DNA from: Deltaproteobacteria bacterium
GTDB lineage: Bacteria > UBA10199 > GCA-002796325 > JACPFF01
DNA length: 64,000 nt
Assembly (NCBI GenBank): GCA_016183065.1
Contig: JACPFF010000005.1
Location: 21 to 64,020, forward strand
Reading direction: 5' to 3'
Made by a program: the position numbers and the translations under genes. This document shows, in pieces, positions 5,642-64,000 of this stretch. The notes beneath the pieces were generated by a model. The model worked only from the letters and a program-made list of their open reading frames with translations, was not told the origin of the DNA and did no database searches. Numbering within the stretch: the first letter of the stretch is position 1; every line of letters begins with the position of its first letter.

Positions 5642-6013
5642 ATGATGAAAATCCCGGTCACTGGAAAACTTTTGCGCATTTTCATCGGGGAATCCGATCG
5701 ATACGATGGCAAACCACTGTATGAAGCCATTCTGCTGCGCGCACGGGGAGAGGGATTGGCCGGCTGCACGGTGATCCGCGGCCTCGCAGGATTTGGCGCC
5801 TCCAGCCGCGTGCATACCACGAAGATTCTCCGCCTCTCCGAAGATCTCCCCATGGTCATTGAAATCGTCGATGCTGAAGCAAAGATCGATCAATTTGTGA
5901 AAGAGATTGACGGGATGATTCAGGAAGGCCTCGTCACCGTCGAACAGGTCCAGGTTATAGTCTATCGACATCACGAGGCAAATGTATCCGCGGATATCAC
6001 GGATCGGTTCTGA
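5642..6013 (+). CDS. DUF190 PII-like protein
   Basis: LLRIFIGESD...LSEDLP.VIEIVD; usual crcB neighbour; AGGAG RBS. Confidence 0.92.
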   Translation: MMKIPVTGKLLRIFIGESDRYDGKPLYEAILLRARGEGLAGCTVIRGLAGFGASSRVHTTKILRLSEDLPMVIEIVDAEAKIDQFVKEIDGMIQEGLVTVEQVQVIVYRHHEANVSADITDRF

Positions 6014-6083
6014 CAGGCTTGATGCCACCACGGATCCTCTGCCCTCAGACCTGACTCTCTCCTGGGCCTGACTGGACCTGACC

Positions 6084-6110
6084 GCAACTTCTTTCTGCGA
6101 CTGCCGATAC
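6084..6110 (+). promoter_or_regulatory. Sigma28-like promoter motif
   Basis: GCAACT-N13-GCCGATAC. Confidence 0.7.
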
Positions 6111-6167
6111 CGTACTGGAGTGGGTGGAGGTCTGTTCCATCAGGCGATAGGGCAAGGAGATCAGAAC

Positions 6168-59391: not shown

Positions 59392-61776
59392 TCACGAGCA
59401 CGGCGGCAACCGTTCCGGGACCTTCCAGGCAAGGATTCCATCCGCCTCGGCACATTGTGCATCTGCCGCGAGCGCGTGCGCGGTCTCACCGGAGGCGACG
59501 TAGACTTTTTTTACGCCAGCCGCTTTGAGATGACGGATCACCTGATCGACCCGCCACACGCTATCGGGAATATGTTTATCGACAAAGGCAAAATCGTACA
59601 CCACATAATCGGGGCCTGCGGCCTCGCATTCCTCCATCGAGGCAAACGTCGTCAGTCGGGCAATGTCCAGCCTCTGCTGCTGCAGCTCCCATGCCAGCCT
59701 GATCCCTTCATCATCATCGATCACGAGCACCGCGGGTTGCGTGATCGATCTCTCGTGGCACACGCGCGGCACCACCTTCAGCGGCACAAAGCCCGCCAAG
59801 CCCTTGGGGATCAGGCGCACCCCCATGGCCGCACATCGTGCCCGAAGCGAGCCCTCTTCATAGTGGCTGGTCACCAGCACGGCCTGCGACTCCGCCCCCA
59901 GCTGTCCGATCAAGTCGAGGCCATTGCAGGACTCGCCGAGCAGTTCATAATCGCAGAGGAAGAGGACATGCGGTTCAGGGCCATACCACTCGCGAACGGC
60001 TGCACCCGAGGAAAAGTGCCGCAGGACAATGCCGTGCTTCGCGCAATCGATCGTGTCAAACCGCTCCTGCCACACCTGGTGGATCGAGGTGTCGTCATCG
60101 ACGATGATCACTAGACTCCCTTCCGGAATCACCAGCTCCGGCACAAACCACGCCGGCGCCGGCGCACGCGGCAATGACACGATCGCCGTCGTCCCCGTTC
60201 CCACGGTGGAGTTCAGCGTCAGCGAGCCCCCCCACGATTCCACAATGCTCCGCGCGTGACAGAGGCCGAGCCCTGAACCATCGGGCTTGCCAAAGGTCGT
60301 TCCCCGTTGCATCAACTGCGTGAGGACCTCGGGCGGAATGCCCGTCCCGGTATCGCGCACATCGATGTGGACGACCTCCGCCGTATGCCGCAGCTCCACG
60401 AGTACCGTGCCATGGGAGTCCATGGCCTCGATGGCGTTGTTCACGAGATTCGAGAGGACGCGCTTGAACTCTGCCGGCTGCACCGCGGCAAAGATCCCAT
60501 AGGCATCCGCGTGCAAAGTCGACAGGATTTCGATCCCCAGGTGGGCCCGGCACTGGATCCGCTTCTCGGAGACCAGCGGTTCGATCAGGCTCGACAACAA
60601 TTGCACCGAGACGGCACCGGACTCTGCCGTCGCTTGTCGTTCCCCGTGCGACGACCGTTTCCGTTCTGCCAGGTCGTTCGCGATATCCTCGATCCGCTGC
60701 ACCGCATTCCGGATCATGATCCGCTTCTCCTCGGGCAATTCCTCCAGCTGGCCTGACACGACCCGCAAGGCCGTCAACGGCGACCGGATGTCGTGTGCCA
60801 CCTGGGAGGCGATGTGACCGACGGCTGCCTGCACAGCCAACAGGTTCTTTTCCGTTTCGAGTTGTAAAATGGTCGTTCTTGACTGATCTACAGCGTCTGC
60901 CAACTGTCCAAATTCATCATTCCGTAATTTCAGATTATGCAGCAAATGTTCATACTGTTGTGCCATGTGCGGTCCATTATGACGAATCAGTTCCACTAAC
61001 TGACCCACTGGTTTTTGTAACCTTTTTGCCCCCACCCAGGCAAGAAAGATGGCCGCCCCAAGGCTCCCGACGAACACAAAGACTATGAGTCTTATCAATC
61101 CACTTGGCCGTACTGCCAACACACTCCACACATCATAATTGGTACAGAACTGAATCGGATATTCATGGGGATAATAGGTGAGTGTCTGTGCTGAGCAATA
61201 CGATTTCTTTTCGCCTTTTTGTAAGCTCTCCGACGTCTGCAGAGACAGTTTCAACGATTCCTTCTGAATCCTCTTGATATCCACAATGCCGGAAATGTAC
61301 CCGATGATCGTGCCGGAATCATTAATGACTTGTTCGTGCAGCACAATACGCTCGCTCGCATCATCGATGAACATGTCAGGCACATGAATCGGACGCTCTT
61401 CCTCAGACAACATATCAGACGGAACATCTCTCGTTGCTCCAATCATCGCAAGGTTTCGGTCACGCAGAATAATGCCGGACATACTTCTTTCATGATATTT
61501 CAGTACATCATAATCTAATTGAATGTTGTCTATCGATTTTTTTTCAATCGCTGTCACAGGGGACAGCGAGTTCGCAAACAACGAAAACGTCGTAATCATT
61601 TCTGACAAATTGCGAGAAAGTTTTTCTGCATGCTGATCAACACGCTGTCGATGTGTCTCTATGATTTGTTCGGACATTGTGTCGATCTTTGCCTTGCTGA
61701 CGAAAAATACTAGCGAGGCCATTGGCACAAGGAGAACAAGAAAAATGACTACAAAAAACCGTTTAAATGTCTTCAT
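59392..61776 (-). CDS. Hybrid sensor histidine kinase (periplasmic sensor, HAMP, HisKA, HATPase, two receiver-like domains)
   Basis: VAHDIRSPL, NL..NA, DTGTGI, GSGLGL, IVDDD and VIDDD. Confidence 0.9.
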   Translation of the reverse strand: MKTFKRFFVVIFLVLLVPMASLVFFVSKAKIDTMSEQIIETHRQRVDQHAEKLSRNLSEMITTFSLFANSLSPVTAIEKKSIDNIQLDYDVLKYHERSMSGIILRDRNLAMIGATRDVPSDMLSEEERPIHVPDMFIDDASERIVLHEQVINDSGTIIGYISGIVDIKRIQKESLKLSLQTSESLQKGEKKSYCSAQTLTYYPHEYPIQFCTNYDVWSVLAVRPSGLIRLIVFVFVGSLGAAIFLAWVGAKRLQKPVGQLVELIRHNGPHMAQQYEHLLHNLKLRNDEFGQLADAVDQSRTTILQLETEKNLLAVQAAVGHIASQVAHDIRSPLTALRVVSGQLEELPEEKRIMIRNAVQRIEDIANDLAERKRSSHGERQATAESGAVSVQLLSSLIEPLVSEKRIQCRAHLGIEILSTLHADAYGIFAAVQPAEFKRVLSNLVNNAIEAMDSHGTVLVELRHTAEVVHIDVRDTGTGIPPEVLTQLMQRGTTFGKPDGSGLGLCHARSIVESWGGSLTLNSTVGTGTTAIVSLPRAPAPAWFVPELVIPEGSLVIIVDDDTSIHQVWQERFDTIDCAKHGIVLRHFSSGAAVREWYGPEPHVLFLCDYELLGESCNGLDLIGQLGAESQAVLVTSHYEEGSLRARCAAMGVRLIPKGLAGFVPLKVVPRVCHERSITQPAVLVIDDDEGIRLAWELQQQRLDIARLTTFASMEECEAAGPDYVVYDFAFVDKHIPDSVWRVDQVIRHLKAAGVKKVYVASGETAHALAADAQCAEADGILAWKVPERLPPCS

Positions 61777-61782
61777 AGATGC

Positions 61783-62994
61783 CTATTCCGAAAAATACCG
61801 GCTAAAGACTGGTCTCACAGAGGCCAACTCCCGCGGCCAAACGGTTCTTTGTTTTCCATGTTGAATCTGCGTAATAATTGGCATGGCTGCGTTGTTGCCC
61901 TTGGCATCGAATATGACCCGACCCATCGGCAAAATAGTGGCAGGACCACCATGCACATGCAATGTAGCCAATGCTGTACGAAGCGTTTCGCCATCAGTCG
62001 ATGCGCATTTTTCAATGGCCTCTTTCAGAATCCATATTCCAACATAGCTGACCGCGGCGATGCCATTCATATCTTCACCAAACCGTCTTCGGAACCGCTC
62101 ATTCAACCGTTGCGTTCCTGCACGCTGCATATCTCCACTCCATTCATTCACGACCATCCAGTTTTGCGCATCACGTCCCAGGCTATTCGCGAATTCGGGA
62201 TCTTTCGATCCGGCGCCTGTACCAATAATCGCCTTTGGCCGCACACCCACTTTCTTGAACGACCGCGCAAGTTTCACGGAATCATGCAGATATGAACTAT
62301 GCAGAATCACATCTGGCATCACCCGGCGGATTTGTTTGGCAATGTGCATCGCTGTGAGAGAGAGATTCTTGAGCTGGTACGGATATGCTATATCACCGAC
62401 ATTCGTATATCCTTTGGCTTTGGCGACGTCGCGCTGAACCTTCGCAGTTGACTGTCCCCACAACGTATTTTCATACAGCAGGACGATCCGTGTCGAATGG
62501 TCAAATCCGCTCTCCCTCAAGAATTGAAATTGTGCCAATACAAACTGCGATTGAGAAGGCTCCGTCCGAAATGTGTATTTGTGCCCGCGCTCCGTCAATA
62601 TGTCCGCAAGTGCCGTAGAAATAAGAAATGGCACATGATATTGTTCCGCAATTTCTGTGGCGGTAAATGTGGTTACACTTTGATAGGCTCCGACTAGCGC
62701 AACGACCCCCTCCTCGATGAGTCGAATGGTCTCATTGCGTGCACGTGCCGGATCGCCTCGTGTGTCGGCGATGAGTAGTCGTATTGCTGCACTATTCAAC
62801 GACTGAATTCCACCAAAATCATTGATCTCTTCCGCCGCGAATTGGTGTCCGCGCAAGTTCATCGTTCCCTCATCTTGCAAAGGTCCCGACAATGGCAAGA
62901 GCACGCCAATCGACACCGGATCCTGTGCGAAAACATGACACGCAACACTCATCGTACAAAATACCATCGCGATGGTCGGCAACAGACGGCACAT
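61783..62994 (-). CDS. Branched-chain amino acid-type periplasmic binding protein
   Basis: IGVLLPLSG, EIN..GGI, GAYQS, YENT.WG. Confidence 0.92.
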   Translation of the reverse strand: MCRLLPTIAMVFCTMSVACHVFAQDPVSIGVLLPLSGPLQDEGTMNLRGHQFAAEEINDFGGIQSLNSAAIRLLIADTRGDPARARNETIRLIEEGVVALVGAYQSVTTFTATEIAEQYHVPFLISTALADILTERGHKYTFRTEPSQSQFVLAQFQFLRESGFDHSTRIVLLYENTLWGQSTAKVQRDVAKAKGYTNVGDIAYPYQLKNLSLTAMHIAKQIRRVMPDVILHSSYLHDSVKLARSFKKVGVRPKAIIGTGAGSKDPEFANSLGRDAQNWMVVNEWSGDMQRAGTQRLNERFRRRFGEDMNGIAAVSYVGIWILKEAIEKCASTDGETLRTALATLHVHGGPATILPMGRVIFDAKGNNAAMPIITQIQHGKQRTVWPRELASVRPVFSRYFSE

Positions 62995-62998
62995 ATGG

Positions 62999-63874
62999 CT
63001 ATCGCTTTCTCAACACCGTACCAATAAATGTCCACCCGAGTGATCCGTCCTCGTTGATGATCAATGCCGCTTCGCCACGTTTATGTTGCCGGAGCAAATG
63101 CGGCTTGAGATGGGGATCTTCTGTGTAAATGCCCCGATCGATATCGTTTGCCTGCACATGGACCACATCGAACCCTTGTTCAATGAGCGCAATGACTCGC
63201 TCTGGATGGCTCAATGAACACCATTCCAGGGCAAGATACGTCCCGATTGGCATCGGGTGTTGAAGGATATGCGCAAGATATTTTGTGCCATCTTCACCCC
63301 CATCGACAGGAGCATAACGGGGATCCGTCGTCCCGGATGGAACGGGAAGATATGGGGGATTTGCCACTACCCCGGTATATCTCTCAAGGCTCTGCGTTGA
63401 GAGCCATGCGATCATCTCTGCATGGATGAATTCATATCGATCACTCAACCCAGAGGCCTCGACGTTCGACCGGCTGACACCCAAGGCCGCTTCATCGGTA
63501 TCGATGGCCTGAACGCGCACGTGGCATCCCTCCGTGCACAAGAGGGCATAAATGGTGGGGATACTACTCCCCGCACCGAGATCAATGATCGTGCGAATCG
63601 GGGGCTCCCCTTGACGCAACATGGCGTGGACAAGACGGGAAAACTGCCATGTATCATGCAACGCGGAAAATGGTGTTACGCGGGGCTCGAGATGGGGTTG
63701 TGGCAACAGATCGCGCGCTGTTATGGAACCGGAAACAATACGTCCCCGCTCGACCTGATATTGCGAAAAAAAATCTGTGACGGCCGTTCCGGCAGCCCTT
63801 TTCGCTCGGCATGCAGACTCACTGGCCCGTGTATATGGCGGTGGTTTTTTCCCAGAGATTGCTCTCATCTCCAT
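62999..63874 (-). CDS. Class I SAM methyltransferase (NPPY type)
   Basis: IDLGAG, ANPPYLP, DGGEDG. Confidence 0.85.
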   Translation of the reverse strand: MEMRAISGKKPPPYTRASESACRAKRAAGTAVTDFFSQYQVERGRIVSGSITARDLLPQPHLEPRVTPFSALHDTWQFSRLVHAMLRQGEPPIRTIIDLGAGSSIPTIYALLCTEGCHVRVQAIDTDEAALGVSRSNVEASGLSDRYEFIHAEMIAWLSTQSLERYTGVVANPPYLPVPSGTTDPRYAPVDGGEDGTKYLAHILQHPMPIGTYLALEWCSLSHPERVIALIEQGFDVVHVQANDIDRGIYTEDPHLKPHLLRQHKRGEAALIINEDGSLGWTFIGTVLRKR

Positions 63875-63886
63875 AGTCTTCCCCTT

Positions 63887-64000
63887 TCAGCACCGTTGCA
63901 GGATGGTCCCGAGAAACATATAGGCGTGTTCTCCGGCCTTATTGGTCGAAAAAACCGCGCGCCCCTCCCGTCGCTGTTGTTCCAGATGTGCCCGAATAGG
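63887..64000 (-). CDS. C-terminus of a paralogous methyltransferase (partial)
   Basis: Manual translation PIRAHLEQQRREGRAVFSTNKAGEHAYMFLGTILQRC* aligns without gaps to HLKPHLLRQHKRGEAALIINEDGSLGWTFIGTVLRKR*. Confidence 0.75.
   Translation of the reverse strand, partial: PIRAHLEQQRREGRAVFSTNKAGEHAYMFLGTILQRC

Follow-up and report, generated by a model that had tools for sequence, protein, structure and literature searches.

The window analysed here, 64,000 nucleotides (nt) of contig JACPFF010000005.1 from the Deltaproteobacteria bacterium assembly GCA_016183065.1 (positions 21 to 64,020 of the forward strand; G000:C12:21-64020, where G000 denotes this genome, whose assembly is 88.8% complete), ends in a unit of four co-oriented genes on the minus strand. 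In the order of transcription, these genes encode two paralogous methyltransferases (MT1 and MT2), a periplasmic substrate-binding protein (SBP), and a hybrid histidine kinase (HK). We tentatively read this MT1-MT2-SBP-HK unit as a sigma-54-dependent, self-contained small-molecule signalling cassette in which the methyltransferases may make the very ligand that is sensed, forming an autoinducer-like loop. The direct observations behind this proposal are the gene order and its short gaps, the domain content, the separation of both enzymes from PrmC, the failure to find a permease, the recurrence of the architecture at other loci, and a set of sister enzyme-SBP-kinase cassettes.

A previous sequence-only reading of the window had described four co-oriented genes with gaps of 4 to 12 nt, and the spacing agrees with it: 12 nt separate MT1 from MT2, 4 nt separate MT2 from the SBP gene, and 6 nt separate the SBP gene from the HK gene. 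The MT2 gene lies at positions 62999..63874 (291 residues), the SBP gene at 61783..62994 (403 residues), and the HK gene at 59392..61776 (794 residues). MT1, the first gene of the unit, runs off the window, which holds only its 3′ end (63887..64000). This segment had been noticed as a partial methyltransferase paralog and, once reading was extended into the contig beyond the window end (own-locus extract L002), proved to belong to a gene of 287 residues from a GTG codon, ending at window-equivalent position 64750 (L002 4908-5771). The public gene calls start later than these longest open reading frames (ORFs), with 673 residues for HK, 359 for SBP, and 266 for MT1 (P0015). The long forms of HK and SBP include the first transmembrane (TM) segment and the signal peptide, respectively, and are supported because the homologs encoded at another locus, L004, align from HK residue 2 and SBP residue 5. 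Per-run contigs of two sequencing runs, which may be the source samples of this assembly, span the whole unit with 0 differences (a 10812-nt contig of run X1 covering L002 300-6041 and a 9015-nt contig of run X3 covering L002 300-5990), and the unit is therefore not an assembly chimera. No convincing small ORF was found inside the four-gene unit. A 22-aa ORF that overlaps the start of MT1 was weighed as a possible precursor peptide and rejected, because its ATG codon falls on, or upstream of, the start site that the sigma-54 site described below predicts.

MT1 and MT2 share 39% identity over 266 residues. MT2, a class-I S-adenosylmethionine (SAM) methyltransferase, matched only generic small-methyltransferase models of Pfam and NCBIfam (MTS, 28.5 bits) and contains the motifs DLGAGSSIPT, ANPPYLP, and VDGGEDGTKY, while MT1 carries ANLPYLP, with NLPY where MT2 has NPPY. 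Residues N172, P174, and Y175 are invariant across the alignment of the MT family, whose profile matches MT1 with 357.7 bits. Members of the NPPY superfamily typically methylate an amide or amino nitrogen, and the motif suggests such a nitrogen as the methylation target here. The sequence-only reading had allowed that the two enzymes might prove to be PrmC/HemK orthologs. That identity was rejected, as the PrmC model TIGR03534 scored 51.3 bits with MT2 and 31 bits with MT1 against a cut-off of 199.1, and the true PrmC of the genome is encoded on another contig (C18:2736-3491, 256.8 bits). With PrmC/HemK, the enzymes share the class-I fold, the NPPY motif, and a GGxDG segment (fold Z scores of 15.9-16.9), whereas both fall far below that cut-off and the N-terminal helical substrate-binding domain of PrmC (PrmC_N) had no Pfam match in MT2. 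The AlphaFold2 (AF2) model of MT2 (pLDDT, 92.6) instead shows the Rossmann core preceded by just a helix, a strand, and a further short helix. Its fold matches included TrmM (Z score of 17.8), PrmC (16.9), HEMK2 (16.8), and AerE (15.9), the last spanning 220 aligned residues, the longest among the matches listed. By sequence, the best matches of MT2 among solved chains were PrmC/HemK (E values of 1.8e-12 to 4.2e-12), and the AerE chain 7rc2 was not among the 15 solved chains matched at an E value of ≤ 0.001. The modelled fold alone names no substrate for MT2.

The MT family is rare and patchy in its distribution. A word-based search of 5.8 billion clusters returned 14 proteins at E ≤ 0.001, nine of which (the protein of this unit included) had E values of ≤ 8.5e-38, the next best being 4.9e-7, and a profile search of 1.84 billion representatives returned 64 proteins at E ≤ 1e-30. 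No member was found among 40 close relatives of G000 or among 150 relatives of the Segetibacter genome, and a single one, at the locus named L003, was found among 59 relatives of the L004 genome. A quick tree united MT2 with three other proteins and with the enzyme of a metagenomic locus, L069 (identified as P0017 from its length and identity), at an SH-aLRT value of 99, and left MT1 by itself on a long branch, so that MT1 and MT2 did not arise by a recent tandem duplication. Two of the longer members are fusions, P0046 with a LysE exporter and P0055 with a GDPD phosphodiesterase domain. Four others (P0019, P0029, P0034, and P0035) have an N terminus resembling a signal peptide or a membrane anchor, which is unusual for an enzyme that depends on SAM.

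The SBP is a LivJ-type protein, with 184.4 bits for Peripla_BP_6 (cut-off, 31.7) and a signal-peptide-like N terminus. Its relatives comprise a handful of proteins at 46-56% identity, after which identity drops to 39%. The closest solved chain, 8WCH, was aligned over residues 25-394 with an E value of 5.3e-45 and corresponds to SAR11_0655, which is reported to be an L-pyroglutamate-binding protein of SAR11 with a dissociation constant of < 5 nM (PMC11485210). Both proteins have the same HAAT-type fold, a likeness seen at the level of the whole-chain alignment; SAR11_0655 is part of an ABC transporter, whereas the SBP of this unit has no permease in the assembly. Indeed, no ABC permease adjoins the SBP gene, the ABC genes upstream of the unit being of MacB/FtsX type, and no LivH/M permease (PF02653) was found in the 88.8%-complete G000 assembly, while the control search found it in 12 of 14 genomes. 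G000 does contain four Peripla_BP_6 loci. Because no LivH/M permease was found in the genome, the SBP most likely acts as a dedicated sensor, and hence as a candidate ligand-binding co-sensor of the kinase, and not as a transport component.

The HK contains HisKA (25.3 bits, just under the cut-off of 26.9, with an E value of 1.6e-5), HATPase_c (77.8 bits), and Response_reg (33.2 bits) domains, and a second receiver-like domain was seen by alignment at residues ~684-790. TM segments at residues 8-26 and ~231-249 flank a periplasmic stretch of ~200 residues. Domains, TM segments, and neighbouring genes bear out the earlier description of an NPPY methyltransferase, a LivJ-type SBP lacking an adjacent permease, and a membrane kinase. 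The periplasmic domain gave only a weak match to dCache_1 (E value of 0.0065), and the L004 kinase was the sole detectable homolog of residues 1-300, with which a word-based search matched only the query itself. An AF2 model of this domain built from a two-row alignment (pLDDT, 39.3) was too poor for a fold search. Two cysteines lying 17 residues apart in the periplasmic domain (residues 194-211; window 61135-61197) are shared with the L004 kinase, and this conserved pair suggests a possible disulfide near the second TM segment.

The HK gene is a mosaic. Residues 1-300 (60877..61776), comprising the first TM segment, the periplasmic sensor, the second TM segment, and a linker, have a low GC content at third codon positions (GC3) of 0.42-0.56, whereas the part encoding HisKA, HATPase_c, the receiver (REC) domain, and the second REC-like domain (residues 301-794; 59392..60876) is high in GC3, at 0.77-0.82 over residues 301-700. 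The jump, at window position 60877 (residue ~300), coincides with the onset of similarity to the L069 kinase, which is 55% identical from residue ~290 to the end, both receivers included, and unrelated in its N-terminal part. The L004 kinase, by comparison, is 25% identical over the whole length, periplasmic domain included. GC3 is ~0.5 in the SBP gene, 0.54 in MT2, and 0.61 in MT1; at L004, it is 0.80 in a regulator gene and 0.41-0.50 in the MT, SBP, and HK genes. The jump is likely a recombination junction at which the input module of the kinase was swapped. On the basis of this junction together with the L069 and L004 comparisons, we infer that a foreign MT-SBP-sensor block was joined onto a resident kinase core.

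An exact match to the sigma-54 consensus, TGGCAT-N5-TTGCA, is found 46 nt upstream of the MT1 GTG codon, outside the window (window-equivalent 64796-64811). It is the one match in 20 kb, against an expectation of 0.10 (matches arose in 20 of 200 shuffles), and no exact match occurs inside the 64-kb window itself. Over the whole genome, 49 exact matches were counted versus ~4-10 expected by chance (scaled shuffle means), and G000 encodes rpoN as well as at least eight homologs of sigma-54 activators, a first candidate for this promoter being the activator at C29:113826-115220. Within the unit, scans for sigma-70 promoters (5 found versus 3.9 expected) and for terminators (4 found versus 4.9 expected) stayed at chance level, which makes a single sigma-54-driven transcript covering MT1, MT2, SBP, and HK the simplest reading of the predicted signals. 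A candidate site for activator binding is the imperfect palindrome GTTCAACTTTCCGGATAATGGAAC (L002 5928-5951; window-equivalent 64907-64930), located ~100 nt farther upstream than the sigma-54 site.

Downstream of the unit, the HK gene and an RND efflux gene are convergent, with 4 nt between their stop codons. On the other side, a spacer of ~350 nt upstream of MT1 is followed by an Ada/Ogt-like gene and the MacB/FtsX-type ABC system. When synteny was compared across five close relatives, the RND neighbour was only 30-56% identical in the four that have it, and in none of the five was an Ada-like neighbour found. All per-run contigs break at L002 ~5990-6119 (window-equivalent 64969-65098), with many loose ends and a 10- to 100-fold rise in depth, which indicates that a GC-rich hairpin repeat of high copy number separates the Ada-like gene from the sigma-54 promoter. 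Owing to this repeat, the link of the unit to its upstream genes is provided by the genome assembly alone.

The surroundings of MT-family genes were compared at loci with full-length-type matches, six from genomes and seven from metagenomes, using ORFs called by our own script; L008, L070, L071, L072, and L074 were too short or uninformative for context. The order MT-SBP-hybrid HK recurs in two unrelated loci, with a Peripla_BP_6 protein at L004 and an SBP_bac_5 protein at L069. The L004 unit consists of a sigma-54 response regulator, an MT, the SBP, and the hybrid HK, with a sigma-54 site 89 nt upstream of the regulator gene that heads it, and its proteins are 45% (SBP), 25% (HK at full length, including the sensor), and 35% (MT) identical to those of the present unit. 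At L069 (5154-13187), a small ORF is followed by an MT (46% identical), an LCM-type methyltransferase, an HExxH peptide beta-hydroxylase (TIGR04267, 52.9 bits versus a cut-off of 40), the SBP_bac_5 protein, and an HK of 1174 residues; this unit resembles a form of the cassette that modifies peptides. The L069 kinase is a 13-TM hybrid kinase, and the unit is divergent from a Ser/Thr kinase gene with TPR repeats. At L005, the gene for a soluble PAS-PAS kinase precedes that of an MT and overlaps its start by 4 nt.

A kinase is encoded within two genes of the MT in 4 of ~8 informative loci (this one, L004, L069, and L005). A failure of the genes to co-occur in relatives, which would have counted against the sequence-only reading, is not what was seen, since MT, SBP, and hybrid HK stand together at L004 and L069 and a PAS kinase with an MT at L005, but the close relatives searched carry no MT-family gene at all. 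The remaining contexts are an amino-acid permease followed by an MT (L007); a C-N hydrolase, a VanX-like M15 dipeptidase, an MT, an alpha/beta hydrolase, and a cupin (L003, identical to L172); an ATP-grasp ligase followed by an MT (L073); and a protein with a weak PdxT-like glutaminase half followed by an MT (L006). Neighbours such as the permease, the C-N hydrolase, the M15 dipeptidase, and ATP-grasp ligases point to a small amino-acid or peptide substrate. L075 (AsnC, an MT 30% identical, GatC, and an amidase) was dropped as a context, its neighbours being the housekeeping gatCA genes. The MT protein P0005 and the SBP protein P0168 may be encoded on one 5137-nt contig, judging only from equal length and source.

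A search with the kinase core only revealed that the unit is not isolated in its lineage. Four further paralogs, 53-60% identical, are encoded in G000 (C5:9187-10725, C6:63676-65151, C6:24642-26261, and C27:4081-5523) and at least five, of which four are 61-65% and one is 36% identical, in the sister genome G001, and matches were obtained in 10 of 41 genomes, G000 included. The loci examined outside G000 are L183-L185 and L188 of G001 and L186 of G024. The HisKA-HATPase-REC-REC core is a lineage-expanded paralog family, most examined members of which are encoded directly after varied enzymes, and the present unit belongs to a group of enzyme-(SBP)-hybrid kinase cassettes. Within G000, one cassette has a divergent sigma-54 regulator gene beside a Methyltransf_25 enzyme, followed by a multi-TM HK; a second has a GRAS-like protein, a DUF819 protein, and an M15 dipeptidase before the HK; a third has a 310-aa protein before the HK and a sigma-54 match 135 nt upstream; and in a fourth, cut on its upstream side by the contig end, the HK is followed by a radical-SAM gene. 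In G001, the HK comes after a B12-radical SAM enzyme, a Methyltransf_25 enzyme, and an SBP_bac_5 protein; after a DUF819 protein and an M15 dipeptidase; after a DHQS-like enzyme and a Peripla_BP_4 protein; after two Methyltransf_25 enzymes, as a multi-TM HK; or after an NCS1 permease, a 307-aa protein, and an SBP_bac_5 protein, as a 13-TM HK. The Peripla_BP_4 gene (L184 1548-2528) is split into frames of 149 and 174 aa by a frameshift or a sequencing error. The G024 cassette is composed of a sigma-54 regulator, a PfkB-PRAI fusion, a PF04392 SBP, the HK, and a C-N hydrolase.

Kinase-core paralogs are often accompanied by a transporter-less SBP, whose family differs from cassette to cassette (SBP_bac_5, Peripla_BP_4, or PF04392). 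Where an SBP comes before the HK, the sensor is mostly of the TM-periplasmic-TM type, and HKs with nothing but methyltransferases in front of them have 6-7 TM segments. In the sister cassettes, the class of the enzyme and the ligand class of the SBP appear matched.

Known systems resemble the unit in part. In the LuxP/LuxQ pair of Vibrio, a transporter-less periplasmic binding protein partners a hybrid histidine kinase, with output via the sigma-54 regulator LuxO, and TorTS is likewise a pair with an SBP-dependent sensor kinase. Here and at L004, too, the gene of a transporter-less SBP adjoins that of a hybrid kinase with a periplasmic domain, binding between the two being putative in our case, and an output via an NtrC-type sigma-54 activator is proposed. 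The differences are that LuxP is a sugar-type SBP whereas the present one belongs to Peripla_BP_6, that the sensor domain has no detectable relatives beyond L004, that no LuxU-like Hpt domain was found, and that the adjoining enzymes are N-methyltransferases and not LuxS. In the PhcB-PhcS-PhcRQ system of Ralstonia, as in CqsA/CqsS and LqsA/LqsS, a signal synthase gene lies next to that of the kinase sensing its product, and PhcB is itself a SAM methyltransferase acting by O-methylation. The unit shares with these loci an enzyme, in phc also a SAM methyltransferase, encoded beside a histidine kinase, and synthesis of the ligand is what we propose for it. Those systems, however, have no binding protein, and the NPPY motif points to N-methylation instead of the O-methylation of PhcB.

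Among methyltransferases, PoyE and AerE are reported to be asparagine side-chain N-methyltransferases of proteusins, which are peptides made by ribosomes and modified post-translationally (RiPPs) (PMC11285071). Their NPPY superfamily, their methylation of an amide nitrogen, and the fold match recall MT2, and the L069 relative is encoded beside a peptide hydroxylase, whereas no significant sequence match to MT2 was obtained and no precursor peptide was found. As for Pseudomonas aeruginosa AgtS and AruS, an sbp gene is adjacent to that of a sensor kinase said to be SBP-activated (PMC11113362). This adjacency is like the one seen here, but the abstract describes no such co-transcribed enzymes, and its SBP and sensor families are others. 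A literature search covering titles and abstract openings found no description of an N-methyltransferase-SBP-hybrid kinase unit. The parts are of known kinds, namely SBP-dependent kinases, synthase-next-to-kinase loci, and NPPY methyltransferases. Apparently new, by the same titles and abstract openings, are their combination, the MT family, the sensor domain, and the cassette family built on one kinase core.

In the loop that we favour, MT1 and MT2 would act in the cytoplasm and methylate a short peptide or an amino-acid-like metabolite at an amide or amino nitrogen, and the methylated product would then leave the cell. As the architecture suggests, the transporter-less SBP would bind this product in the periplasm and present it to the periplasmic domain of the HK. 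The promoter match and the L004 arrangement further suggest that the HK would signal to an NtrC-type sigma-54 activator driving the unit's own promoter, resulting in positive feedback. Biosynthetic-type enzymes in sister cassettes, the LysE fusion, the lack of an importer, and the sigma-54 arrangement at L004 argue for such a loop. The quorum-sensing-like synthase-receptor circuit proposed by the sequence-only reading is supported in part by these points, by the sigma-54 promoter, and by the lack of a permease, with synthesis of the SBP ligand by the methyltransferases being a step proposed from the architecture. Several points weigh against the loop. The unit encodes no exporter, its cognate sigma-54 activator is putative, and Hpt (PF01627), a short and divergent domain, was not found in the 88.8%-complete assembly. 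With the MT family found in 0 of 40 close relatives, conservation within the lineage cannot be judged. L069 keeps the MT type with an unrelated SBP family and sensor, which would be unexpected if the MT product were the SBP ligand, unless the substrates differ. Finally, several MT contexts and the sister cassettes with an M15 dipeptidase, a C-N hydrolase, or PfkB have the look of processing rather than synthesis.

Nearly as good a fit is provided by the main, if doubtful, rival, in which the SBP and HK detect an external amino-acid-like nutrient or antimetabolite and the induced methyltransferases modify that compound or a downstream product in the cell, by way of detoxification, inactivation, or assimilation. 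Sensors and response enzymes are commonly co-transcribed, MT genes have an amino-acid permease, a C-N hydrolase, an M15 dipeptidase, and an alpha/beta hydrolase among their neighbours, and sister cassettes include the M15 dipeptidase, PfkB kinase, C-N hydrolase, and NCS1 permease. The LysE fusion is also compatible with detoxification by methylation and export, and the closest solved SBP binds a nutrient, L-pyroglutamate. Yet with no importer in the unit and no LivH/M permease found, the compound has no evident route to the cytoplasmic enzymes, and many sister cassettes contain enzymes of biosynthetic type (B12-radical SAM, DHQS-like cyclase, and HExxH hydroxylase). It seems unlikely that the substrate is a protein, i.e., that the methyltransferases modify a Gln or Asn side chain of the kinase, its receivers, or a partner regulator in a CheR-like tuning of the response. 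The nearest sequence and fold relatives do include the protein glutamine N5-methyltransferases PrmC and HEMK2, and the MT stays with the kinase core or a kinase in four loci (this one, L004, L069, and L005) while the SBP and sensor change. Most other MT contexts, however, have no kinase and instead show small-molecule enzymes or transporters, including the LysE and GDPD fusions, and the N-terminal substrate domain of PrmC was not detected. We know of no precedent for NPPY methylation of a kinase or regulator within its own pathway.

Just as unlikely is a RiPP-like signal, in which the enzymes would N-methylate Asn or Gln of a ribosomal peptide encoded elsewhere and the SBP and HK would sense that peptide; because this is a special case of the loop that we favour, our weights for the readings do not add up to one. 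Among the fold matches listed, the one to AerE covers the most aligned residues, and at L069 a small ORF upstream, the HExxH peptide beta-hydroxylase, and a peptide-type SBP accompany the MT, but the SBP of the present unit is of amino-acid type, no convincing small ORF was found in the unit, and the Z score of AerE is not above those of other NPPY enzymes. Nor was an NHLP or Nif11 leader found, a weak negative given that the NHLP control matched in no genome. Least probable of all is a fortuitous adjacency, in which a nutrient sensor would simply happen to be co-transcribed with housekeeping RNA or protein methyltransferases unrelated to it. Most NPPY enzymes do methylate RNA, DNA, or protein, yet the association recurs in unrelated genomes with differing SBP families, the MT family is rare, patchy, and not housekeeping, and the true PrmC is encoded elsewhere in the genome.

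Even if the favoured loop gives way to its main rival, the analysis defines a small, uncharacterised family of N-methyltransferases with small-molecule-type contexts, points to binding proteins that apparently act only as sensors, and records a likely within-gene recombination junction at which the input of a kinase would have been swapped. The system is compact enough for direct testing, since four genes and one promoter can be moved into a laboratory host. More speculatively, and with no great confidence, this lineage of uncultured groundwater bacteria may run a multi-channel communication system made of interchangeable cassettes, each leading from one or more signal-making enzymes via a transporter-less SBP or membrane sensor to a common hybrid-kinase core. 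New channels would arise by recombination of a foreign enzyme-SBP-sensor block onto that core, and the present unit would be a channel for an N-methylated amino-acid, amide, or peptide signal produced by the uncharacterised NPPY methyltransferase family. If the enzymes do make the sensed ligand, an N-methylated amino-acid-like molecule would constitute a new chemical class of bacterial signal, and the cassettes would represent a modular route for the evolution of signalling channels in lineages known only from metagenomes.

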